A stretch of DNA of 53,790 nt from a virus, in IMG/VR virus record IMGVR_UViG_3300045988_119356, positions 1 through 53,790 of that record. The stretch is one strand, 5' to 3'. The translations under genes and the position numbers were made by a program. Positions 1,624 to 49,990 of the stretch are shown one piece after another (the stretch's first letter is position 1; each line of letters starts with the position of its first letter). Under the pieces are notes generated by a model. That model did not search any database and had not been told where the DNA came from. It saw only the letters and a program-made list of their open reading frames with translations.

Positions 1624-2070
1624 ATGTCGATTAAAATTTCCGAAAAAACTAAAAATAACCAGTGGGTGTATTTAGTCAAGTCCCCAGCTGGTGAGATTGT
1701 CTATATTGGTGTGGCCCGTTTGAAGGATGCCATCACTTTCAACGCTTTTAACTTCCGACCGGAGTTTGACCCCGACGCACCCTATGAGTTAGAGTTGCTT
1801 GAAAGCTACAGCAATCGATATGAGGCCAACAAAGCTAAAGAGATGTATTTGATGGTGTATGGAACGCCGGTATTTAACCGCGAGTGCAAACGAGTTGTCC
1901 GTTGCATAACGACCGGTGAGGTTTTCAATACGGCTGTCGAGGCTTGCCGGAAATATGGGATTGAGCAAAGCAATATGACGCACCACATGGCCGGTCATTT
2001 GGGTTTCAAAAGCCTGAAGGGGTTAGAGTTCAAGTATGAGGTGCTCTCAGAGAGCAAGGTGCGAGAATGA
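1624..2070 (+). CDS. Small GIY-YIG-like homing-endonuclease-type protein with a C-terminal DNA-binding domain that recurs in paralogs in this genome.
   Basis: The N-terminus has VYLV..(11)..VYIG then R, matching GIY-YIG spacing. The C-terminus has VRCITTGEVF...A.R.YG......H..G......G..F.Y. An RBS AAGAGGTG precedes it. Confidence 0.55.
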   Translation: MSIKISEKTKNNQWVYLVKSPAGEIVYIGVARLKDAITFNAFNFRPEFDPDAPYELELLESYSNRYEANKAKEMYLMVYGTPVFNRECKRVVRCITTGEVFNTAVEACRKYGIEQSNMTHHMAGHLGFKSLKGLEFKYEVLSESKVRE

Positions 2071-2555: not shown

Positions 2556-3310
2556 CCGATAACACTACGTACGCTTACACCTCCATAAACTTATGCGAGG
2601 AAACCGCAAATGATATATTCCTGTATGTCGTTCGTAACCGCTCCGGTGGTATTGAGTTTATGGGGTGCGGAACGATGCCTGAGATTGTCAGTATGCGCGC
2701 CATTAAAAACAATAAATTTTTCAACCCGTCCGCTGTGTACGAGTATTGTATTTTATACAACCAACACTTCAAACGGCGTATAGATGCCCTTAACGCTCTT
2801 GGAACCGCTATACGCGCCATACATGGTAGAACACCGCGTATGAACTTATATTCGCGTGACTACAACAACGACAAACGCATCGTATGTCTGCAAACGGGCG
2901 AGATATTTACCAGTGCCGCAGAGATTTGCCGCAAGTATGAAATTAATCCCGGGCAGTTGAGCGATCATCTCAGAGGCGCTCACGGACGTAAGACCGTTAA
3001 GGGTATGACGTTTCTTTATGAATATAAAGTCCGTAAACAGCAAGACCTTTATAACCTGCTAAAATACTGGACGCCGCAAATGTATAACATAGCACCGGTT
3101 GATTGGGACCCTCATAACACCGGTTTGACTGAGGATATGATAGCTTATTGTTACGGAGAGTATTGCAAACAAGAAATTTGTGTGCATTGGTTAGATAGCA
3201 AACGCAATCGCGACGGGCTTGAAGTTATCACTCCTAACACACAAGTGACACCACCACCCGTCCAACTCCCAGAGGTAGAGAGAGTATCGCTTGACAATTT
3301 AAACAGTTAA
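2552..3310 (+). CDS. Paralog with the homing-endonuclease-type C-terminal DNA-binding domain
   Basis: RIVCLQTGEIFTSAAEICRKYEIN...HLRGAHGRKTVKGMTFLYEY matches the C-terminus of the 1624 and 51098 proteins. Confidence 0.55.
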   Translation: MTDNTTYAYTSINLCEETANDIFLYVVRNRSGGIEFMGCGTMPEIVSMRAIKNNKFFNPSAVYEYCILYNQHFKRRIDALNALGTAIRAIHGRTPRMNLYSRDYNNDKRIVCLQTGEIFTSAAEICRKYEINPGQLSDHLRGAHGRKTVKGMTFLYEYKVRKQQDLYNLLKYWTPQMYNIAPVDWDPHNTGLTEDMIAYCYGEYCKQEICVHWLDSKRNRDGLEVITPNTQVTPPPVQLPEVERVSLDNLNS

Positions 3311-3339
3311 TGCTTATTATGAGAGCGGAGATATAATTT

Positions 3340-3951
3340 ATGAACGCATATCCGACAAGAGCTTACGACCTACTTGATGATAACGAGCGGAAAGCGGTTG
3401 AAGAGTATGTTCAATATGTTGTAGCAGAACAAAAACGTAAAAATCAACGTATCGACTTAGCTCTCAATTTACCTATACCGTCAGAATATATAAAACGTTC
3501 TCGTGGTGCTTTATTGCGACCGGTGCCTCGTGCGGCTTTAGCTGAGCGCATTACGGAGGAAAGTAGCTCTTCGGACATATCACCATCTCGTGTTATAAAA
3601 GAGCTGGCTAAAATTGCTTTTAGCGACGTAACGGACTTTTTATACACAGGGCCGTTTGGTAGTGTCAACATAAAACAACTTAAAGACATACCACCCGACA
3701 AATCCGGAGCCATTAAGTCCGTAGAAACTAAAATCGGACAGGCAAGTACCAGCTCTAAGATAACAATGCACGACAAACTTCCAGCGCTCAAAGCCCTTTC
3801 AGAGATGATGGGGCTTACAGCGCCTGAGAATGGACCCGTGCTTGGTGAGTATGTAAAACAAGAGATACGCAAGGCCGCCAAAGAGCAGATTGAAGCTCCA
3901 GAGGCCGAGTATGTTGAACTTTTAGAGCATGTTGAGAGGGTTGAGAGTTAA
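3340..3951 (+). CDS. Terminase small subunit (putative)
   Basis: 203 aa, immediately upstream of and abutting the large terminase, in the expected position. Confidence 0.55.
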   Translation: MNAYPTRAYDLLDDNERKAVEEYVQYVVAEQKRKNQRIDLALNLPIPSEYIKRSRGALLRPVPRAALAERITEESSSSDISPSRVIKELAKIAFSDVTDFLYTGPFGSVNIKQLKDIPPDKSGAIKSVETKIGQASTSSKITMHDKLPALKALSEMMGLTAPENGPVLGEYVKQEIRKAAKEQIEAPEAEYVELLEHVERVES

Positions 3952-5714
3952 TGGGACAGATGACATTAACAGCTTGGAACGAACGCCAAACTGACAACAC
4001 CATACACCCTTGGCGACCCCATCCACTTGGTGCTGATGAATGGCCGCCAAATTATCCCGCTGTCTATCGTTGGCGGTCTAAAGTCCTCAAACAACTTATA
4101 TCTGACCCTAAAACCCTTAAAGCCGCTAAAGTCTATTATTCAACCCATCCGGCTGAGTTTATTATGGACTGGATGGACACTTATGACCCGCGTAAATCCC
4201 CTACCAACGCTAATCCAGCGCTCAGAGGTGAGAAATGGATGCCGTTTGTTTTTTTTAAGCGGCAAAAAGATGTAATTGACTTTTTTGAGTCGTGTTCGCA
4301 TGACCAAACGAGCGGGTTGGTTGAAAAATGCCGTGACTTCGGTTTAACTTGGCTCGCGTGCGGATATTCTGTCTGGCGCTGGCTGTTTATCAAAAATGAC
4401 GCTATCGGTTGGGGTAGCCGTAAAGAAACGCTTGTCGATAAGCCTGGCGACCCTGATAGTATTTTTGAGAAAATCCGTTTAATGCTTAAACGTCTACCGC
4501 GTATATGGTTACCGGCAGGGTTTAGTTGGGGGCGTAATTCAACCTATATGAAACTCTTAAATCCTGAGAACGGCGCAATCATTGCAGGCGAGGCCGGTGA
4601 CAATATTGGTCGTGGTGGTCGTAAGAGTATAATGCTACTTGACGAAGCTGCGCACTTGGAGCGCCCTGAGAAAGTTGAGGCTGCTTTAGGTGATAACACC
4701 AATGTCCGAATTGATATTTCATCAGTTAATGGCGTCGGTAACGTTTTCCACAGACGCAGAGAGAACGGCGTCATTTGGTCGCCTGACGTAACCAGTTATC
4801 CGTTCGGGTTTGTTCGGGTTTTTGTAGCCGACTGGCGCGACCATCCGCTTAAAACTCAAGAATGGTACGATGCCCGTAAAGCTCGTTACGAACGCGAAGG
4901 TATGGCGCATATTTTCGCACAAGAGGTCGACCGTAACTATGCGGCAGCCGTCAGCAACACTGTGATACCTTATCAGTGGGTTGAAGCGTCAATCGATGCT
5001 CACATTAAGTTGCCGTGGTTTGCCGAGGCTCTTGAGACTCATAAAGACGATTGGTACGCAGGGCTCGATGTGGCTGACGAGGGTAACGACCGTAACGCTC
5101 TCACACTTCGACAGTGGGTTATCTGGCGCGATGTGCAAGAATGGGGTGAACGTGACCCTGGTATCAGCGCTCGCAAGGCTGTTTTAGCTTGCAGAGAGCA
5201 TAAAGGTCATATCTGTTGCCAGTATGACTGCATAGGTGTTGGTTCTGGCGTAAAAACCGAATATAACCGCCTTACAACAGACGAAGGAGTTATAAGTGCA
5301 CATGAGATACCATTTATTCCGTGGAACGCGGGGGCTAGTGTTTTAAATCCTTTTGATAGAATTATCCCTGACGACAATGAAAGCTTGCAAAATAAAGATT
5401 TTTTTGATAACTTAAAAGCACAGGCTTGGTGGTCCATACGGACGAGGTTTTATAAAACGTTTAAAGCGGTAAGCGAAGGTGTAAAATATAATCCCGACGA
5501 ACTTATATCAATAGATAGCCGCATAACGCTTTTAGAGCAGTTGAAGAAGGAACTTATACAGCCGACGGTCGGTCATAGTTCAAGACTTAAATTGCTTATT
5601 GAAAAAAAGCCGGACGGTATGCGTTCACCTAACTTGGCGGATAGCGGGGTTATGGCTTTCTTCCCGGTAACTGACGGCTCGACAACAATTTTAACTGGTT
5701 CTTATGGTTTTTGA
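3951..5714 (+). CDS. Terminase large subunit
   Basis: 587 aa. Walker-A-like VEKCRDFGLTW, Walker B LLDEAAH, and a C-terminal acidic nuclease region. Confidence 0.85.
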   Translation: MGQMTLTAWNERQTDNTIHPWRPHPLGADEWPPNYPAVYRWRSKVLKQLISDPKTLKAAKVYYSTHPAEFIMDWMDTYDPRKSPTNANPALRGEKWMPFVFFKRQKDVIDFFESCSHDQTSGLVEKCRDFGLTWLACGYSVWRWLFIKNDAIGWGSRKETLVDKPGDPDSIFEKIRLMLKRLPRIWLPAGFSWGRNSTYMKLLNPENGAIIAGEAGDNIGRGGRKSIMLLDEAAHLERPEKVEAALGDNTNVRIDISSVNGVGNVFHRRRENGVIWSPDVTSYPFGFVRVFVADWRDHPLKTQEWYDARKARYEREGMAHIFAQEVDRNYAAAVSNTVIPYQWVEASIDAHIKLPWFAEALETHKDDWYAGLDVADEGNDRNALTLRQWVIWRDVQEWGERDPGISARKAVLACREHKGHICCQYDCIGVGSGVKTEYNRLTTDEGVISAHEIPFIPWNAGASVLNPFDRIIPDDNESLQNKDFFDNLKAQAWWSIRTRFYKTFKAVSEGVKYNPDELISIDSRITLLEQLKKELIQPTVGHSSRLKLLIEKKPDGMRSPNLADSGVMAFFPVTDGSTTILTGSYGF

Positions 5715-22905: not shown

Positions 22906-22979
22906 GGGCGGTTGGCAGAACGGTTATGCGTGGGACTGCAAATCCCTTTAAGTAGGTTCAACTCCTATATCGCCCTCCA
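22906..22979 (+). tRNA. tRNA-Cys(GCA)
   Basis: Folded by hand. Acceptor GGGCGGT/ATCGCCC; D-stem GCA/TGC with a GG loop; anticodon stem GGGA/TCCC with loop CTGCAAA; T-arm GTAGG-TTCAACT-CCTAT; discriminator T; encoded CCA. Confidence 0.6.
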
Positions 22980-28456: not shown

Positions 28457-28876
28457 ATGGTGCAAGTTTGGACTGACGCGAGTTTTAATTCAAAAACTAA
28501 AGACGCTGGGCTTGGTATAACAATTCGGCAGTTAATTAAAGGTGGTGTAAAAGAAACTCGAATAAATCTAAAAACTAAAGCTGAAGATAACAATCAAGCG
28601 GAATTGCTGGCCATTTACTATGCTTTACAAAATATAAACGGAGTGCCTGAAAAAGAGCCGATTTTTATCGTTACAGACAGTAAAATAGCGATTGATAGCA
28701 TATTGCATCCGGAAATGAAAAAAGATAAATATAGAGCCGTGGCAGAAAGAATCAGAGGTATGCTTTACTGTGAGCAGTGGAAAATATATCACAAAACGGC
28801 TCACACTGGACGACAAGATAGATATTCAATCAGGCAAGCAATAACTGATAAGTTGGCGAAAAAAGCTAGACAATAA
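28457..28876 (+). CDS. RNase H-like protein
   Basis: VWTDASF...AELLAIYYAL...IVTDSK carries the RNase H D/E/D motifs. The ATG at 28457 has an RBS GAGAGG. Confidence 0.55.
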   Translation: MVQVWTDASFNSKTKDAGLGITIRQLIKGGVKETRINLKTKAEDNNQAELLAIYYALQNINGVPEKEPIFIVTDSKIAIDSILHPEMKKDKYRAVAERIRGMLYCEQWKIYHKTAHTGRQDRYSIRQAITDKLAKKARQ

Positions 28877-28906
28877 TTTATTTTTGAGTATAATACTTAT
28901 GGTTAT

Positions 28907-28939
28907 TAGTCATCGACCGCCCGCGAAAGGATAAACGGG
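28907..28939 (+). terminator. Rho-independent terminator
   Basis: CCGCCCG-n12-CGGGCGG followed by T7. Confidence 0.75.
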
Positions 28940-28940
28940 C

Positions 28941-28969
28941 GGTTTTTTTGTTGACTTATGATATTTTAT
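28941..28969 (+). promoter_or_regulatory. Sigma70-like promoter: TTGACT, a 17-nt spacer, then TATAAA
   Basis: Hexamers read directly. It drives a noncoding transcript towards the tRNA-like element. Confidence 0.5.
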
Positions 28970-29128
28970 CAATTATAAAATATTCATCGCGTTGGTCGGT
29001 TAAATCGAGCAGTGGCGTGGCCCTGCATTGTTACGGAAAATGTTGCATGACTAACAACGTTTTTGGCGGTAACATAGGCTTAGTCAGCCGAGAAATAAGT
29101 GTAATTCTTATAACGCGATACAATTTAT

Positions 29129-29204
29129 CGGGAGGTAGCTCAGTTAGTAGAGCACTAGATTGAAAATCTAGGTGTCGGTGGGGCGGAACCACCCCTCTCT
29201 ACCA
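29129..29204 (+). ncRNA. tRNA-like element with a GAA (Phe) anticodon, a C1-U72 mismatch and a non-canonical T-loop (GGCGGAA); it encodes CCA
   Basis: Hand fold. D-arm GCTC-AGTTAGTA-GAGC; anticodon arm CTAGA-TTGAAAA-TCTAG; T-stem GGTGG/CCACC; acceptor CGGGAGG/CCTCTCT with 6 of 7 pairs. Confidence 0.5.
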
Positions 29205-29321
29205 AACCACCAGCTTAACGGTTTCCGTTTAAGGTCTGCGGTTGCCAGGGCTTCTTGGTTCAGAGGGCGATAAACAGTAACCAAGCAGCGACTTGTAACC
29301 TGTAAGTTTACATGCTCCGTT

Positions 29322-29356
29322 CTTCCGAGGTGCTAAATCGGAGGATTTTTTTTTTT
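29322..29356 (+). terminator. Rho-independent terminator
   Basis: TCCGAGG-tgctaaa-TCGGAGGA followed by T11. Confidence 0.7.
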
Positions 29357-29423
29357 GTAGATAATTCACGATACACAAATAGATTTGTGTAAAGTTTTGA
29401 ACCGTTTTTTGATACGCAAATTG

Positions 29424-29795
29424 TCAATCGTTTTTATAAAAATTTTTATCTCTTTTATAAACACCGTTTACAAAAGAATATCTTTTGTCCGATATTCTTT
29501 TTTTACATTTTTCAAGAGCTTTTTTATAATACATCATGCGTCTTTTTTGTTCTTTAATACGTTGATTGAAATAAATATTTTTAAGAACATAATTACCGAT
29601 GTTTTCAGTTTCTTTAAATCTTAATAAAGAAACGGCGACATTAATAACATCGCCGATTTCTTCTTTTACATTTTCGGTTGTAAAAGCATTTGAGAGTTCT
29701 TTTAACTCTTCGTCTAATTGGACAAGTTGAGAGTGAGGTGTTGCTCTTGGAAATAGTTTTTTATGTATTTCAAGACCTTTTTGAAAATCCATCAT
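29424..29795 (-). CDS. MazG-like nucleotide pyrophosphohydrolase
   Basis: The EEIGDV motif and the all-alpha MazG pattern. Confidence 0.5.
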   Translation of the reverse strand: MMDFQKGLEIHKKLFPRATPHSQLVQLDEELKELSNAFTTENVKEEIGDVINVAVSLLRFKETENIGNYVLKNIYFNQRIKEQKRRMMYYKKALEKCKKRISDKRYSFVNGVYKRDKNFYKND

Positions 29796-42226: not shown

Positions 42227-42313
42227 TGGTGGGCGCAATCAGAATCGAACTGATACTCCGCAATTGGAACAAGATTTTAAGTCTTGCGTGTCTACCATTT
42301 CCACCATGCACCC
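42227..42313 (-). tRNA. tRNA-Leu(TAA), type II with a long variable arm and encoded CCA
   Basis: Hand fold of the reverse complement. Acceptor GGGTGCA/TGCGCCC; anticodon arm CAAGA-CTTAAAA-TCTTG; 15-nt variable arm; T-arm ATCAG-TTCGATT-CTGAT. Confidence 0.7.
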
Positions 42314-42448: not shown

Positions 42449-42634
42449 ATGGATAAAAAAACTTTAAATCTTACAGAGTTAGCCAAGTACATTGGTGTTG
42501 GCAGAAAAACTCTCTATACCATGATACAGGACGGGCGATTCCCCGTTCAACCAATTAAAGGTTTAGAACCTAAACGTTGGAGTGTTGAAAAAGTTAACGA
42601 ATGGATAGAGAGTAAAGAGAATGATAACAATTAA
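42449..42634 (+). CDS. AlpA/Xis-like HTH DNA-binding protein
   Basis: LTELAKYIGVGRKTLYTMIQDGRFP resembles AlpA-family HTH proteins. Confidence 0.55.
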   Translation: MDKKTLNLTELAKYIGVGRKTLYTMIQDGRFPVQPIKGLEPKRWSVEKVNEWIESKENDNN

Positions 42635-44159
42635 TGAATTATTTTCAGGATTAGGAGCACAGATTGCTGCTTTCAAACGTCTTAATATACCTTGTGAAGT
42701 AGTAGGTATTTCAGAAATTGATAAATATGCTATACAATCTTACGAGGCTATAAACGGTCCTACGCGTAATTACGGCGATATAACACAAATCCCTTATTTG
42801 GATTATGCGGATTTATGGACATACTCTTCGCCCTGTCAGGATTTTTCAACGGCCGGAAAACAAAAAGGTATTTATAACGCCGACGGCAGTTTAACACGTT
42901 CGGGATTGTTAAAACACGTTGAAAGATTGCTTGAAACGTCTGTGATGTTAGGCAATCAACCTAAATATTTACTTATGGAAAACGTTAAAGGTTTAGTAAG
43001 TAAAAAATTCAAACCTGATTTTCTTAAATGGTTAGATAAATTAGAACAGTTGGGATATAATAACTATTGGCAAGTTTTGAACGCTAAGGACTATGGTATC
43101 CCTCAAAATAGAGAACGTGTTTTTGTTGTTAGCATCCGTAAAGATGTAGATACCAAAGGTTATAAATTTCCCTCACCTGTACCGCTTGAGAAACGCTTAA
43201 AAGATATGCTCGAACCTTGGGTGGACGTAAAGTATTATTTGAGTGATGATAAGGTTGAGAAATTTGCTAACGCTTTAAATAAAAAAATAGAAAATCAAGA
43301 TATTAGTTATTGTATTGATGCTAACTATTGGAAAGGAACAACACCACAACAATTTTTAAATAAAAATCGCAGACAATTAGTTAAAGAAGTTAGTAACACC
43401 ATTCGTTGTGGTGGTGGTGGTAGCTTGGACGGTAAGCATACATGGGATGTTGTTGTTGAACCTTTTATAGCTGATGATACACAAGGTTTTGACGGTGTTA
43501 GATATTACGATAATTATTCACTGACATTAAGAAGTGAGCGTTCAGGATTAAAAGTGGTTGAACCCTTACAAATAAAAGAAGCAACCCAAAAAGGATATGC
43601 TGAGGCTTATGAGTATGATAGTGTTTCGCTCGATCAGCCTAATAGCAAGACAAGAAGAGGTAGAGTTGGAAAGCAAATATCTAATACTTTGACTTGTTCT
43701 TGTAATATGGGGGTAGTTGAGCCTAAAGTTATTCAAGTTGGAAATATTGTCAACACCGGCAACTGGGATAACCCTCAGAGAGGGCGAATCTATTCGCCCT
43801 CTGGAATCAGCCCCGCTCTCAATACGGTAGGTGGTGGAGGATTAGAACCTAAGATTTTTGAAGAAGGTGTCGGTCTTAATCCTTTATCGAGAAAATTAGA
43901 ATTTAACGGATTTAAAGAAAACTCTCCAAGTTTAAGAGCAACCGATTATAAATGCCCTCATTGCTACTCGGATGGTTACCGTATTCGCAAACTTACGGCA
44001 AGGGAATGCTGGCGTTTGATGGGGTTTACCGACATTGAATTTGATTGTGCAAAATTGTCTGGTGTATCAAACTCACAGCTTTATCGCCAGGCGGGAAATT
44101 CAATCGTGGTAGATGTTTTAGTCGGTATCTTTAAGGAGTTGTTCGATGACAGATTTTAA
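42621..44159 (+). CDS. DNA (cytosine-5) methyltransferase
   Basis: Motif I LFSGLGA, motif IV SSPCQDFS, motif VI ENVKGL, and C-terminal motifs. Confidence 0.85.
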   Translation: MITINELFSGLGAQIAAFKRLNIPCEVVGISEIDKYAIQSYEAINGPTRNYGDITQIPYLDYADLWTYSSPCQDFSTAGKQKGIYNADGSLTRSGLLKHVERLLETSVMLGNQPKYLLMENVKGLVSKKFKPDFLKWLDKLEQLGYNNYWQVLNAKDYGIPQNRERVFVVSIRKDVDTKGYKFPSPVPLEKRLKDMLEPWVDVKYYLSDDKVEKFANALNKKIENQDISYCIDANYWKGTTPQQFLNKNRRQLVKEVSNTIRCGGGGSLDGKHTWDVVVEPFIADDTQGFDGVRYYDNYSLTLRSERSGLKVVEPLQIKEATQKGYAEAYEYDSVSLDQPNSKTRRGRVGKQISNTLTCSCNMGVVEPKVIQVGNIVNTGNWDNPQRGRIYSPSGISPALNTVGGGGLEPKIFEEGVGLNPLSRKLEFNGFKENSPSLRATDYKCPHCYSDGYRIRKLTARECWRLMGFTDIEFDCAKLSGVSNSQLYRQAGNSIVVDVLVGIFKELFDDRF

Positions 44160-46428
44160 CCTTACAACAGCTTATATCACGTCCTTAACCGGCAACCCTA
44201 ACACCGAGTGCGATTGGCGTATTATTAACGACCGCAACGCCGGTGAAATGGGCATTAACCTTCGCGGGTCGCTCACAACCGTTGCAGCTCAATTACAAGC
44301 TTACAACCAACAAGGTTATGGTATTTTTATGACTGTCAACGCTATGAACCCGACAGGCCCTCGCACACTTGAAAACGTTGCTTATACCCGCGCACACGTT
44401 GTTGACCTTGATGATATTATAAGCGCTCAGGACAGTTACAATAGAGCTGTGCAGTCCAATATGCCCCCGCATTTTGCGGTACAATCATCACAAGGAAAAT
44501 TTCACCTTTATTGGCTGGTAGAACCTTATAAAGATAATGATTTTTATAGCTTACAACAACGCAAACTCGTACAACTTTATAATTCAGACCCAAATGTTAT
44601 TGATGCCACTCGAATCCTGCGTGTTCCTGGTTTTTATCATAACAAGCGCGAACCGCAACTTGTAACCTGCTGGGGTATTCACAACGGTCCGAGATATACA
44701 GCGCAACAAATTGCCAATAACCTGGCCACAATCAATATTGTGTCTGTAGGTAGTAAACGTTCGGAGCTCGGTGATCCGAAATTAGCCGCTCCAAACATAA
44801 ATTTGCTCGTGTATGCGTTAAACACCATCGACCCGAATACACTTACTCGCGATGAGTGGATGGCAACGTCAGCAGCTTTTAAACAAGCCGGATGGTCTTT
44901 GACGGATGAAAACACCTTGCATAATTTATGGTTGCAATGGTGCGAAAAATATAAAGACGACAACAAGTCTGAAAATCTTAAAATGTGGGCGTCGTTCAAA
45001 GATACTCAGGTTGGTTGGTCGCGTTTTTGTCGTTTGGTGCCGGAAGTGTTGGCAATACAATATTTCGGTCAACCGTCGACAACCACTTCACCTGCACCAG
45101 CGACAACGCCAGAACCATGCGAGATGAATAACCTGCCGGAAATTCTGGACGCTACTGCAAAACAAATATGGTTTAAAAACTGTTTCTTTGTTGAAAGCGA
45201 AGGCAAAATTTTCTCACCGACTGGACGCTTTATGAATCAAGTACAATTCAACGGTCGTTACGGTGGTAAAGAGTTTACACTTAAAAATAACGGCGGAAAA
45301 CTAACCGACGAAGCGTGGAAAGCTGCTTTGCGTTCGGTTGATTGGTGCATACCAAAAGTGGACCATTGTCGATTCTTACCACAAGAAGCAAGTTTTAGCG
45401 TGATATTAGATGATATGGGGCGTAAAGGTTTAAACACTTATATTCCGGCAAAAATTAAAACTGTTGAAGGTGATATCAGCCGTTGGAAGGATTATTTAAC
45501 AAGAATTTTCAATACACCTGAGGATATTAAAATCTTTGAGGATTATGTTGCACATTGCATTAAATTTCCCGGTTGGAAAATTCCGTGGTCTGTGCTGTTA
45601 CAGTCCGCAAAAGGTATCGGTAAACAAATGATAAGCGATATTATCAAACACGCTGTCGGTGAGCCTTATACGTATCAACCGGACGCTGAAGAACTTGTTA
45701 GTGGTGTCAGTCAGTTTAATGGCTGGATGCGCAATAAATTGATGATTTTGGTTGATGAAGTGCGAGTTGGTGACCGTAATGACCTTATGAACGGGTTAAA
45801 AACAATTATTACCGACCGTCGAATCGCAATTGAATCGAAAGGTGTCGATCAGGAAATGGAGGATAACGTTGCTAACTGGATATTCTTCAGTAACTTTAAA
45901 GACGCTTTCCCGATTGATGAAAACGAACGCCGTTATTGTATTTTTTACAGTAAATTGCAGTCCGCTCTTCAAATTGAAGAAGCTGGTTTGAATAAAGACT
46001 TTTTTGATGGTATGTATCATTGGCTTGAGTGCGAACAAGGTTTTGAAAAACTCGCTTGGTATTATTTGCATTATCCGATTGAGCGCGGTTCATTACCACA
46101 CAGAGCTCCACACACATCATCTTATGAAGAAGTTATACGTATCGGTCGTAGCCCGTTACGTGTTATACTGGACGATAAAATTAACGCTGGTGAGCGTGGT
46201 TTTCGTGGCGGGTATGTCAGCTATGTTATGTTCCAGAAAGCTGTTGCTGAGAGTTCTATGCGCAATAAACCGCTTGAGCATACTCTTAAATCAATCATCG
46301 AAGGAAAAGGTTATCATGAGCTTGGATATACAAAAGCGCCTGTTCCTGGTGAAGATTTGAAACAACCAAGCTTAATATTCGGTTTGAAGGGTTTAAGTGT
46401 TGATGGATATGAAGGAGCGCAAAATTGA
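44146..46428 (+). CDS. Primase-helicase (D5/SF3-like)
   Basis: 760 aa. Walker A KGIGKQ, Walker B ILVDEV, and an N-terminal primase-like region. Confidence 0.55.
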   Translation: MTDFNLTTAYITSLTGNPNTECDWRIINDRNAGEMGINLRGSLTTVAAQLQAYNQQGYGIFMTVNAMNPTGPRTLENVAYTRAHVVDLDDIISAQDSYNRAVQSNMPPHFAVQSSQGKFHLYWLVEPYKDNDFYSLQQRKLVQLYNSDPNVIDATRILRVPGFYHNKREPQLVTCWGIHNGPRYTAQQIANNLATINIVSVGSKRSELGDPKLAAPNINLLVYALNTIDPNTLTRDEWMATSAAFKQAGWSLTDENTLHNLWLQWCEKYKDDNKSENLKMWASFKDTQVGWSRFCRLVPEVLAIQYFGQPSTTTSPAPATTPEPCEMNNLPEILDATAKQIWFKNCFFVESEGKIFSPTGRFMNQVQFNGRYGGKEFTLKNNGGKLTDEAWKAALRSVDWCIPKVDHCRFLPQEASFSVILDDMGRKGLNTYIPAKIKTVEGDISRWKDYLTRIFNTPEDIKIFEDYVAHCIKFPGWKIPWSVLLQSAKGIGKQMISDIIKHAVGEPYTYQPDAEELVSGVSQFNGWMRNKLMILVDEVRVGDRNDLMNGLKTIITDRRIAIESKGVDQEMEDNVANWIFFSNFKDAFPIDENERRYCIFYSKLQSALQIEEAGLNKDFFDGMYHWLECEQGFEKLAWYYLHYPIERGSLPHRAPHTSSYEEVIRIGRSPLRVILDDKINAGERGFRGGYVSYVMFQKAVAESSMRNKPLEHTLKSIIEGKGYHELGYTKAPVPGEDLKQPSLIFGLKGLSVDGYEGAQN

Positions 46429-47180
46429 GTAATATAGAATTATACTGGGGCGACTGTCTTAAAATCATGGACGGATTAATTGCAGACGGTGTTAAGGTTG
46501 ATGCAATTATTACTGACCCTCCGTATGGTACAACAGCGTGCAAGTGGGACAGCGTGATTCCGTTTGAAGAGATGTGGAAAAGGTTGAAAGCTTTAAGAAA
46601 GGATAATACACCTATCGTTTTATTCGGGAGTGAACCTTTTAGTTCTTATTTGAGAATGTCTAATATAAAAGAATATAAATATGATTGGTATTGGGAAAAA
46701 ACTCAAGCAACCGGTTTTTTTAATGCCAAAAAACAACCTATGAGGTGTATAGAAAACATAAACGTTTTTTATAAAAAACAATCTTTATTTAATTTTATAA
46801 AAACTTTCGGGCATAAGCCGATAAATTCATTTACTAAATATCTGAGAACAGTTAATAAAACAGAAGTTTACGGTAAATGCAATAAAGAAATTTCAGGTGG
46901 TGGAAATACAGATAGATACCCAAGACAACTTTTAACTTTTTCAAGTGATAAACAAAGTAATTATTTACACCCCACCCAAAAGCCTCTTGCTCTTATGGAA
47001 TATCTTGTAAAAACCTACACAAACGAGGGTGATACAGTGCTGGACTTTACAATGGACTCCGGTACAACCGGTGTAGCATGCAAGAATCTCAACCGCAATT
47101 TTATCGGTATAGAGTTAGACCTCAATTACTATATGATAGCACAGGAGCGGATAAATAAAAACCCCTCTCAACGCCAGTGA
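46425..47180 (+). CDS. DNA methyltransferase (N6-adenine or N4-cytosine, DPPY motif)
   Basis: IITDPPYGT (motif IV) and C-terminal SGTTGVA (motif I) show the beta-class motif order. Confidence 0.8.
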   Translation: MSNIELYWGDCLKIMDGLIADGVKVDAIITDPPYGTTACKWDSVIPFEEMWKRLKALRKDNTPIVLFGSEPFSSYLRMSNIKEYKYDWYWEKTQATGFFNAKKQPMRCIENINVFYKKQSLFNFIKTFGHKPINSFTKYLRTVNKTEVYGKCNKEISGGGNTDRYPRQLLTFSSDKQSNYLHPTQKPLALMEYLVKTYTNEGDTVLDFTMDSGTTGVACKNLNRNFIGIELDLNYYMIAQERINKNPSQRQ

Positions 47181-48865: not shown

Positions 48866-49990
48866 TTATTTAGACATCTGGTTAGATAAATCATAAAGTG
48901 ATTTTAATCCAACAGCATCGAACGGATTCACAGAACCATTCTGACCATTACCACCTGCAACAATCATACTTGCCGGGAATTTAACGGATGCAACAGCTTG
49001 TGCAATACCAACCTTGGTTTTATAATCCCATTCTGCAGCTTCTTGCGGTGTCAAACCAGCTGCAACTTTCAAGCGGTTTGCTTCAGCTTGAGCTTTACCT
49101 TCTTGGATAATTTTCTCAGCATCATATTTCGCTTGTTCTGCTTTGAGTTTGGACACGTCGCGATTCTTTGCAGCTTCGGTTGTTTCAACAATTGCTTTAG
49201 CTTTTGCATCTGCTTCTGCTTTAGCTACGGCCGCTTTACCTTGTTCGGTAATGGTAATTGTTTCTTGGCGTGCTTTTTCAGCTTGTGAACGTGCTAAAAC
49301 TGCGGTTTGTTCGGCTTCTTTTTGGGCGTCAATAATTTTCAAGATTTTTTCTTCAGGTCTTGGATCACCCATAACAACTTGTTGAATTTCAACGCCGTAA
49401 TCGTTCAATAAATTTTTGCCGATGATTTTGGGCTTGCCATTTTCGTCAGTTCTTACTTTTGCCAAACGATATGTTGTGCCATCTTCCATTTTGACATCTT
49501 CGTAATAAACGTCATAAGCACCATTTTGCAATTGTCCTTCGAGAACACGAGCGATTTCCGGTTTACGAGCTGAATAAGTATCAGATGCTGTAAACATCGG
49601 GGCAGTTTTATTTGACAAAACGTCGATAGTATTTTTCTTAATTAAATTTTCAACAACATTTTCATAAGAACCAAAATCTTTATGCAATTTCAAACGTGTT
49701 GCTTCGTCTGCCGGTAAACGGAATTTAACACTACCGGAAAAAGTAACTTTCGCACCGTCGGACATGGTTGTAACTTCTTCAAAATCAATATCACCAGATA
49801 CTCTGTAAGTTGAAACATCAGCGAAACCATCCCAATACATTCCCGGCTCACTAATGATTGACATTTCACCGGTTCCCGGAGCTTGTCTTACACGATATTC
49901 TGCGTAATCGTTAGAACCCCAAAGATTAAAAGCTATGATACTGCCGATTATGAAAACTATAAAACCGGCAAATATTTTATCACTGTTCAT
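48866..49990 (-). CDS. SPFH/band-7 (HflK/C- or prohibitin-like) membrane protein
   Basis: An N-terminal TM segment, an SPFH-like core, and an Ala/Glu/Lys-rich coiled coil (AEKARQE...AKAEADAKAKA). Confidence 0.65.
   Translation of the reverse strand: MNSDKIFAGFIVFIIGSIIAFNLWGSNDYAEYRVRQAPGTGEMSIISEPGMYWDGFADVSTYRVSGDIDFEEVTTMSDGAKVTFSGSVKFRLPADEATRLKLHKDFGSYENVVENLIKKNTIDVLSNKTAPMFTASDTYSARKPEIARVLEGQLQNGAYDVYYEDVKMEDGTTYRLAKVRTDENGKPKIIGKNLLNDYGVEIQQVVMGDPRPEEKILKIIDAQKEAEQTAVLARSQAEKARQETITITEQGKAAVAKAEADAKAKAIVETTEAAKNRDVSKLKAEQAKYDAEKIIQEGKAQAEANRLKVAAGLTPQEAAEWDYKTKVGIAQAVASVKFPASMIVAGGNGQNGSVNPFDAVGLKSLYDLSNQMSK

Follow-up and report, generated by a model that had tools for sequence, protein, structure and literature searches.

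The stretch of DNA analyzed here, referred to below as the window, comprises positions 1 to 53,790 of the IMG/VR record IMGVR_UViG_3300045988_119356 and represents a 53.8-kb phage genome with 38% GC. At the junction of its rightward lysis/RNase H genes with the leftward replication genes (MazG-like, ThyX, DNA polymerase), there is a small noncoding transcription unit with a gene for tRNA-Phe(GAA), in which the bases of the elbow formed by the D-loop and the T-loop differ from those of canonical tRNAs. The following elements were identified in the unit and at its left border:

28917..28949 (+): intrinsic terminator of the RNase H gene, with stem CCGCCCG/CGGGCGG (28917-28923/28936-28942), 12-nucleotide (nt) loop, and T7 at 28943-28949
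28951..28979 (+): sigma-70-type promoter TTGACT (28951-28956), 17 nt, TATAAA (28974-28979), with a predicted start at about 28986
28986..29119 (+): structured leader ("5' domain") of 134 nt, beginning at the predicted transcript start
29120..29128 (+): 9-nt linker ACAAUUUAU between the leader and the tRNA, single-stranded judging by its sequence and fold
29129..29204 (+): tRNA-Phe(GAA), 76 nt including the encoded CCA, assigned by ARAGORN, Rfam, and class membership
29205..29320 (+): 3' trailer with the hairpin CUUAACGG-UUU-CCGUUUAAG and the stem CUUGGUU/AACCAAG
29321..29356 (+): intrinsic terminator of the unit, with 8-bp stem UCUUCCGA/UCGGAGGA (29321-29328/29338-29345), 9-nt loop, and T11 at 29346-29356

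A first-pass annotation of this DNA, made from the letters alone, had described a self-contained noncoding unit extending from a promoter-like site to a T11 terminator, and all the features it described are present in the sequence. The upstream terminator exists as well, at 28917-28949 rather than at 28907-28939. The promoter gained support from five relatives (L017, L021, L023, L025, and L027) that have a promoter at the same position in front of different cargo: TTGACA directly follows the RNase H terminator, and TAATAT, TACTAT, or TAAATG comes after 16-18 nt. In two contigs sharing the block described below, the promoter is identical (L016) or has one mismatch (L014). A consensus scanner missed it because the -10 hexamer ends in A, not T, and missed both terminators because their loops exceed 8 nt. 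No open reading frame (ORF) with a convincing start was found in the unit, as the annotation had proposed. A 71-aa frame with a TTG start (28948-29163) starts within the promoter, overlaps the 5' part of the tRNA, and gave no hit in Pfam, and the small-ORF reading of the unit was rejected.

Both programs applied to the tRNA agreed with the proposed tRNA-like(GAA) element with a GGCGGAA T-loop, a C-U pair 1-72, A73, and CCA. ARAGORN called tRNA-Phe(GAA) at 29129-29204, and Rfam model RF00005, whose gathering score is 29, matched over its positions 1-71 with 48.3 bits (E = 2.4e-7 for the whole window). Since the gene is 76 nt long, its linear positions match standard tRNA numbering. The acceptor stem CGGGAGG/CCTCTCT contains the mismatch C1xU72 and the pair G3.U70. 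The D-arm GCTC-AGTTAGTA-GAGC (in RNA, GCUC-AGUUAGUA-GAGC) carries A18 (29146) and G19, and the anticodon arm CTAGA-TTGAAAA-TCTAG has its anticodon at 29162-29164, with U33 and a purine at position 37. The variable loop is GUGUC. In the T-arm, GGTGG-GGCGGAA-CCACC, the loop at 29182-29188 reads G54 G55 C56 G57 G58 A59 A60, and the gene ends with A73 followed by the encoded CCA. ARAGORN and the minimum free energy (MFE) fold both gave a cloverleaf with a 7-bp acceptor, a 4-bp D-stem, 5-bp anticodon and T-stems, and 7-nt loops, its sole flaw being the pair 1:72. The canonical elbow, consisting of U54-U55-C56-R57-A58 and G18-G19, is missing; only G19:C56 and R57 have been kept. No alternative register of the T-arm was found; ARAGORN and Rfam both keep the one originally proposed, and no canonical tRNA-Phe with a shifted T-arm was called.

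The identity set of tRNA-Phe comprises G34 A35 A36 and A73, to which U59/U60 and G20 are added in Escherichia coli. The window tRNA has the anticodon GAA and A73, with AA at positions 59/60 and U at position 20. Two other assignments of the gene were rejected. A transfer-messenger RNA (tmRNA) would combine a tRNA-like domain containing G3:U70 with a tag reading frame; ARAGORN in tmRNA mode returned nothing at the 80% threshold, and an Rfam hit to tmRNA was absent. An attP or integration-site tRNA fragment does not match a full-length tRNA, and an integrase was not found among the ten large window ORFs scanned.

Class of phage tRNAs with an alternative elbow

Few nucleotides in biology are as conserved as those of the T-psi-C loop and G18-G19, which build the elbow relied on by gene finders, modification enzymes, RNase P, the ribosome, and T-box RNAs. 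The first-pass annotation had suggested looking for the odd T-loop in related phages, and no fewer than 35 different phage tRNAs were found to have it, which ruled out a one-off defect. To define the class, IMG/VR was scanned with the pattern GGGGCGGAACC-N11-CCA, representing the T-loop, two closing pairs, and the encoded CCA, and at least 120 loci were obtained. The three remaining T-stem pairs were all intact in 58 of the 122 matches listed, against about 5% expected by chance. Among the matches listed, ARAGORN at a threshold of 85% recognized 38 full cloverleaf tRNAs (35 unique). These were Phe(GAA) (12), Asn (4), Ala, Met, His, and Ile (3 each), Val (2), and Gln, Thr, Gly, Glu, and Lys (1 each), in total 13 anticodons and 12 amino acids. 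At its default threshold, the program found just 10 of the 38.

Members of the class have GGCGGAA closed by G53:C61 and G52:C62, an A directly 5' of G19, a normal cloverleaf, and an encoded CCA, all of which are found in the window tRNA. Alignment A4 comprises 30 members, and in the defining regions the window tRNA aligned without gaps to the 29 others. Paired bases occupied 95.2% of the stem cells, compared with 55.8% in shuffled alignments, and 243 changes were double-sided; the covariation score was 0.993 against 0.21 in shuffled and at most 0.18 in slid controls. The base preceding G19 is A in 28-29 of the 30 members. The tRNA-Ala members retain G3:U70, and the tRNA-His members retain G-1:C73. 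The arrays at 36 loci usually contain a single GGCGGAA tRNA beside up to 37 other tRNAs, and a canonical tRNA with the same anticodon lies nearby for just 3 of 38 members. A close homologue of the window tRNA is part of a tight Phe-Lys-Met array on a 237-kb contig (L115).

Compared with the canonical elbow, G18:U55 is replaced in the class by A18:G55 and U54:A58 by G54:G58, while G19:C56 is unchanged. For 206 tRNAs that passed strict filtering, taken from the loci of the class, T-loop positions 55-56 were compared with the D-loop, with the following results:

T-loop 55-56 UC: D-loop GG in 150/156
T-loop 55-56 GC: D-loop AG in 29/30 (GG in 3/30; Fisher p = 1.7e-23)
T-loop 55-56 UU: D-loop GA in 8/8
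T-loop 55-56 UA: D-loop GU in 6/6

These counts indicate that the tertiary pairs 18:55 and 19:56 covary. The loops AGCGUUA, AUCGUUA, and GGCGGAA suggest that 54:58 may covary too, as U:A, A:U, and G:G, and the whole pattern fits an intact L-shape that would be made of different bases. Other noncanonical T-loops occur in good cloverleafs of the same arrays (L033-L152, e.g., L111, L059, L148, L076, and L047), namely AGCGUUA/AGCGUAA, AUCGUUA/AUCGUAA, UGCAAGU/UGCAAAU, UUAGAGU/UUAAAAU, UUUGAUU/UUUAAAU, and GGCGGUA. Their D-loops match, with AG accompanying G55, GU accompanying A56, and GA accompanying U56. With its 12 specificities and the covariation of both stems and tertiary pairs, this set of predicted tRNAs forms a distinct class.

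The first-pass annotation had considered a tRNA mimic or decoy aimed at host defences, or a degenerate tRNA. The covarying stems, the retained identity elements, and the unique anticodon slots point instead to working tRNAs, not decoys or pseudogenes. A tRNA-shaped RNA that would serve not for decoding but for absorbing or misdirecting a host defence or enzyme that targets tRNAs has a biological rationale, since many defences cleave tRNAs and phage tRNAs counter them (PMC10264068, PMC11555353, PMC11464382, PMC12445682, PMC12851939), and the perfect tRNA-Phe anticodon stem-loop beside differing elbow bases also speaks for it. However, the published counter-measures are working tRNAs changed in the anticodon loop or stem, not in the T-loop (PMC10264068, PMC12445682). 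A decoy would need neither the identity elements nor the single isoacceptor slots that the class has kept, usually just one such elbow occurs per tRNA array, and domain scans of the window ORFs revealed no defence or anti-defence gene linked to the cassette. We therefore regard a decoy as very improbable.

The exact 17-nt T-arm of the window tRNA is also present in a tRNA-like gene in the tRNA cluster of an unrelated phage (L002 493-566 (-), L004 2143-2216 (-)), missed by both ARAGORN and Rfam. This gene has a perfect 7-bp acceptor, ACCA, and an identical 19-nt stretch, TCGGTGGGGCGGAACCACC; its D and anticodon arms are degenerate. The adjoining tRNA-Met has the T-loop AUCAUCC and scores only 28 bits. 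The other matches to the 17-mer were discarded, four of them being located inside a WhiB-like gene (L001, L003, L006, and L007) and one not called as a tRNA (L005).

Origin of the cassette and its flanks

The phage originates from a human gut metagenome, in which ENA contig ERZ917862 k127_128070 (53,831 bp) carries an identical unit. At the DNA level, no GenBank phage is close to the window; Rhizobium phage P106B has a DNA polymerase with 57% identity to that of the window. A pair of overlapping ORFs, of which one contains an LLGC lipobox, is spanin-like and, together with lysis genes of the Hydrolase_2/GH108 type, indicates a Gram-negative host. The window has two further tRNA genes, for Cys at 22906 and Leu at 42227; their T-loops are canonical, and both genes are tightly packed between others. 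The window also codes for ThyX, for a pyrimidine-dimer glycosylase next to tRNA-Leu, and, at 42621-44159, 46425-47180, and 48866-49990, for a C5-cytosine methylase, an N6/N4 methylase, and an SPFH/Band 7 protein.

Relatives of the locus were collected via their RNase H and MazG-like proteins. The contents of the intergenic site were as follows:

L010-L013, L019: terminator alone, or two small leftward genes
L017, L021: promoter, RNA of about 60 or about 90 nt, terminator
L025, L027, L028: promoter and canonical tRNA-Gln(UUG)
L028: TnpB-family gene (Cas12f1-like_TNB domain) beside tRNA-Gln
window, L022, L024: the unit studied here
L023, L014: variants of the unit

The comparison shows the RNase H/MazG-like intergenic site to be a hotspot for predicted small RNA cassettes. 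In L028, a 394-aa Cas12f1-like_TNB (TnpB-family) protein (2722-3906 (-)) and a 161-aa neighbour adjoin tRNA-Gln. Just downstream of the unit, the intergenic block 29357-29424, which lies downstream of the MazG-like gene, is more conserved than the adjoining genes (90% identity in L014; recognizable in L030, L017, and L023). It contains the palindrome ACACAAAT-AG-ATTTGTGT at 29373-29390, a perfect inverted repeat only in window-type phages.

Part of the cassette was also found outside this genomic context. L016, a 2.1-kb metagenome contig with flanks unrelated to those of the window, carries a block 100% identical to window 28943-29143, which begins at the T-run of the terminator, includes the promoter and the whole 134-nt leader, and extends 15 nt into the tRNA. 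The T-run of the RNase H terminator forms the left edge of the shared block in the alignments with L016 and L014 (A1-A3). In L016, the block continues into a tRNA-Phe with the anticodon AAA (1624-1701; 59.6 bits in Rfam), a perfect acceptor CGGGAGG/CCTCCCG, the D-loop AGCCAGUUA, the T-loop UUAAAAU, and no encoded CCA; its elbow obeys the U19:A56 rule. Bacterial-type tRNAs seldom have A34. The unit of L016 ends with an unrelated trailer, about 150 nt long, and a terminator. Just 3' of the L016 cassette, at 2001-2065 (+), there is an int-alpA RNA motif (RF02996; 37.6 bits, gathering score 35.8), and a stretch upstream of the RNase H gene of L009 (3333-3426) has 85% identity to it.

In L014, the block has 3 mismatches over about 190 nt, while the flanking genes are about 75% identical. 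It precedes a tRNA-like gene (4301-4387 (-)) with a normal T-loop and canonical elbow, an unusable anticodon arm UCU-GGCC-AGA, and a long variable arm, reported by ARAGORN as 'tRNA-???'. L023, a close relative of the window, has an identical tRNA body and the same trailer with no leader, and the 5' strand of its acceptor, GGAGGGG, pairs fully with CCUCUCU (G1.U72, A3-U70, G5.U68). Upstream of this tRNA, at about 3695-3770 (-), there is a degenerate tRNA-like gene with a canonical elbow, a 4-bp anticodon stem, and an 8-nt loop AACGCGCG, which was not called by ARAGORN.

These comparisons show that the predicted window tRNA is a recombinant of an L016-type 5' strand and an L023-type body, with the junction within the shared GUAGCUCAG of the conserved D-arm region. 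The mobile block, comprising the promoter, the leader, and the first bases of the tRNA, was joined in the D-arm to an L023-like tRNA body. C1xU72 and G3.U70 arose because recombination joined the two strands, and are scars rather than a designed feature; the parental forms of pair 3:70 are A3-U70 in L023 and G3-C70 in L016. Between the tRNAs of L016 and L023, the pairs 1:72 and 3:70 are changed on both sides and still paired, 5:68 has a one-sided change (A-U to G.U), and at 50:64 in the T-stem L016 has U-A where L023 and the window have G-C. Such compensated differences indicate that both lineages were evidently kept as folded tRNAs.

A recombination by-product decaying on the mobile promoter-leader block, without current function, would explain the chimeric acceptor with C1xU72 and would match the presence of other defective tRNA-like genes at the hotspot (in L014 and upstream in L023) and the many relatives without any cargo at the site. 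Nevertheless, apart from the pair 1:72, all helices as well as the anticodon loop are intact, the identical body in L023 has a fully paired acceptor, and the odd T-loop is a conserved feature of a class. The same recombinant is also present in independent assemblies and metagenomes (L022 and L024). For these reasons, decay seems distinctly unlikely to us.

The leader is closed by a helix of 8-9 bp, AUCGCGUU(G)/(U)AACGCGAU, starting at the predicted transcript start and enclosing about five hairpins. Its MFE is -41.3 kcal/mol (z = -2.14), and 6 of 200 shuffled sequences fold as well. Two loops, UGACUAA (29048-29054) and UUAGUCA (29080-29086), are complementary. The hairpin AUAAG-UGUAAUU-CUUAU (29095-29111), which resembles a T-arm, abuts the closing helix, and the hairpin loop UUAAA beside it offers AA that the elbow covariation rules would pair with G55 and U56. 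ARAGORN reported the leader as tRNA-like only at the 80% threshold with introns allowed, and an expanded or intron-containing tRNA-like RNA may be noted here as a lead only. The trailer is identical in L022 and L024, and the changes in L023 preserve its first hairpin (A-U to G.U). It is conserved in close relatives only, its place being taken in L016 and L014 by unrelated sequence of similar length, and it folds no better than shuffled sequences (z = -0.39).

Searches for known relatives of the flanks were negative. Among 4227 Rfam covariance models (E <= 10, region 28850-29450), only tRNA was recognized, other hits being at chance level. Blastn against GenBank phages and PLSDB plasmids gave no match to the leader or trailer, the only match being that of the tRNA core to canonical phage tRNA-Phe. 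Exact k-mers of the leader occurred only in the L014 contig in IMG/VR, only in L016 among JGI/ENA metagenome contigs, and in none of the GTDB species genomes, which gave no host or prophage as a source. Searches with nhmmer using the leader, the trailer, and the right-hand block against 152 loci (1.3 Mb) detected no diverged copies of the leader or trailer.

The flanks, especially the 134-nt leader, could possibly be a processed regulatory RNA, as the first-pass annotation had also considered, and the architecture is compatible with small RNAs (sRNAs) derived from tRNA spacers, of the 3' external transcribed spacer (3'ETS) or 5' leader type. Taken further, the tRNA may act here as a processing scaffold, a signal for RNase P and RNase Z/E that frees a functional leader and/or a terminator-bearing trailer, with decoding dispensable. 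The leader is the best-conserved part of the cassette (100% in L016, 3 mismatches in L014) and precedes a different tRNA or tRNA-like gene in each case. The coincidence of the predicted transcript start with the closing helix, the 9-nt linker before the tRNA, and the order shared by the three leader-bearing units (leader, tRNA or tRNA-like gene, trailer of about 120-190 nt, terminator) are also in line with this scenario, as are the lack of a usable anticodon arm in the L014 partner, the mismatched 1:72 of the window partner, and the short sRNA genes at the same promoter position in other relatives. However, all known copies of the leader are near-identical, with no diverged ones, and may owe their identity to recent transfer alone. 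Moreover, the trailers are unrelated in sequence and that of the window shows no unusual folding, 11-mers complementary to transcripts of the phage itself are not enriched in the flanks (13, with 11.5 expected), and L023 contains the tRNA and trailer without the leader. We consider the scaffold role rather unlikely.

Function of the unit and comparison with known systems

On balance, the unit appears to be a working phage tRNA-Phe(GAA) with a covaried elbow, made from its own promoter-terminator cassette. A primary transcript of about 370 nt would start at the closing helix of the leader. Cleavage by RNase P at the 5' end of the tRNA would free the leader, and RNase E/Z together with exonucleases would release the trailer, so that both flanks would be co-products of the transcript. 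The mature tRNA would be charged with Phe and decode UUU and UUC, which account for 30 and 10 of 1000 codons in the window phage, respectively.

Several observations weigh against this assignment. Positions 59-60 are AA, not UU as used by E. coli phenylalanyl-tRNA synthetase, and C1xU72, a 1:72 mismatch as in initiator tRNA, should weaken EF-Tu binding. The recombinant acceptor carries G2-C71, G3.U70, G4-C69, and A73 (29130-29132 with 29197-29199; 29201), the main determinants for alanyl-tRNA synthetase, which arose in the window copy by chance; this copy could thus be impaired or mischarged with Ala. A long structured leader and trailer are unusual around a plain tRNA gene, and some hotspot cargo is clearly non-decoding, the cassettes of L014 and L023 holding tRNA-like genes with broken anticodon arms. 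Finally, the T-loop and CCA were fixed by the scan pattern and are therefore invariant in the class by construction.

Since U54, U55, A58, and G18 are absent, the tRNA would lack m5U54, pseudouridine-55, m1A58, and Gm18, and it would look different to any factor reading these positions. The difference could be either selected, for evasion or orthogonality, or a neutral compensated alternative. Tentatively, the GGCGGAA/A18 and other covaried elbows may be a selected trait that keeps decoding while escaping a host factor that reads G18, U54, U55, or A58. If so, candidates for this factor would be the enzymes that modify the T-loop and D-loop or an undescribed tRNA nuclease or sensor directed at the elbow, and the window cassette would be one mobile delivery vehicle for an elbow-variant tRNA.

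The interest of these findings lies less in the single gene than in the widespread, under-called elbow class and the mobile promoter-leader block. One alternative elbow (A18:G55, G54:G58) is common to dozens of phage tRNAs with 12 amino acid specificities, which constitutes a natural elbow-substitution experiment, and further tRNAs of the arrays with U:A or A:U at 19:56 and A:U at 54:58 show which elbow changes are tolerated. Because default ARAGORN finds 10 of the 38 members, phage tRNA repertoires and the codon-usage and host-range inferences drawn from them may be under-counted. The class also raises the question of escape of such tRNAs from host modification or tRNA-directed immunity. The block, for its part, illustrates that a promoter with a structured leader can move between unrelated phages by recombination inside the conserved D-arm of a tRNA.

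No description of the elbow class was found in the full-text literature searched, with most subscription journals outside its scope; the class is apparently undescribed, although not certainly new. A search of GenBank phages with ten concatenated class members revealed no cultured phage with the variant T-loop, the nearest matches (Ro1 and BcepSauron) being canonical. In GTDB genomes, the exact T-arm of the window tRNA with CCA gave one chance coding match, in a Chloroflexi metagenome-assembled genome; the T-stem was fixed in this search, which leaves room for the class in bacteria. The tRNA-Phe genes of Raoultella phage Ro1 (MG250486 86633-86708) and Burkholderia phage BcepSauron resemble that of the window in the type of anticodon arm, the D-stem, A73, and the encoded CCA, and that of Ro1 also shares the variable loop and T-stem (GGTGTC GGTGG...CCACC). 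In contrast to the window gene with AGTTAGTA and GGCGGAA, they have the D-loop AGTTGGTA (AGUUGGUA in Ro1 RNA) and the T-loop TTCGAGT. Both are located in tRNA arrays with short spacers, whereas the window gene has a promoter and a terminator to itself and is flanked by the 134-nt leader and by a trailer that extends about 115 nt to the terminator hairpin.

The layout of the unit also has parallels among RNAs that are co-transcribed with a tRNA or tRNA-like element and freed by tRNA-processing enzymes, such as 3'ETS-leuZ of E. coli, the stable RNAs C and D from the tRNA cluster of phage T4, and the tRNA-like/miRNA units of murine gammaherpesvirus 68 (MHV68). The leader and trailer of the window have neither a sequence nor an Rfam relationship to them. 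A deviant T-loop is likewise known in staphylococcal cell-wall tRNA-Gly, which is used outside translation. Like the class, it has a cloverleaf without the T-psi-C signature. The staphylococcal tRNAs are single specialized isoacceptors beside normal ones, whereas the class covers 12 amino acids and usually provides the sole gene per anticodon; domain scans of the window ORFs found no aminoacyl-transferase gene near the unit.

A possible rationale for deviant phage tRNAs is offered by those that resist host tRNA nucleases, which differ from host tRNAs, also at conserved positions, and yet decode (van den Berg et al. 2023, PMC10264068). The tRNAs of phage T5 act against retron PtuAB and PARIS (PMC11555353, PMC11464382), a tRNA-Thr acts against P2 OLD (PMC12445682), and Cas12a3 contacts the backbone of the T-arm, not its loop bases (PMC12851939). 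Among the published resistance systems compared, no nuclease that reads T-loop bases was linked to the class. The changes in nuclease-resistant phage tRNAs are located in the anticodon loop or stem, whereas the window tRNA combines an ordinary anticodon arm with a changed elbow.

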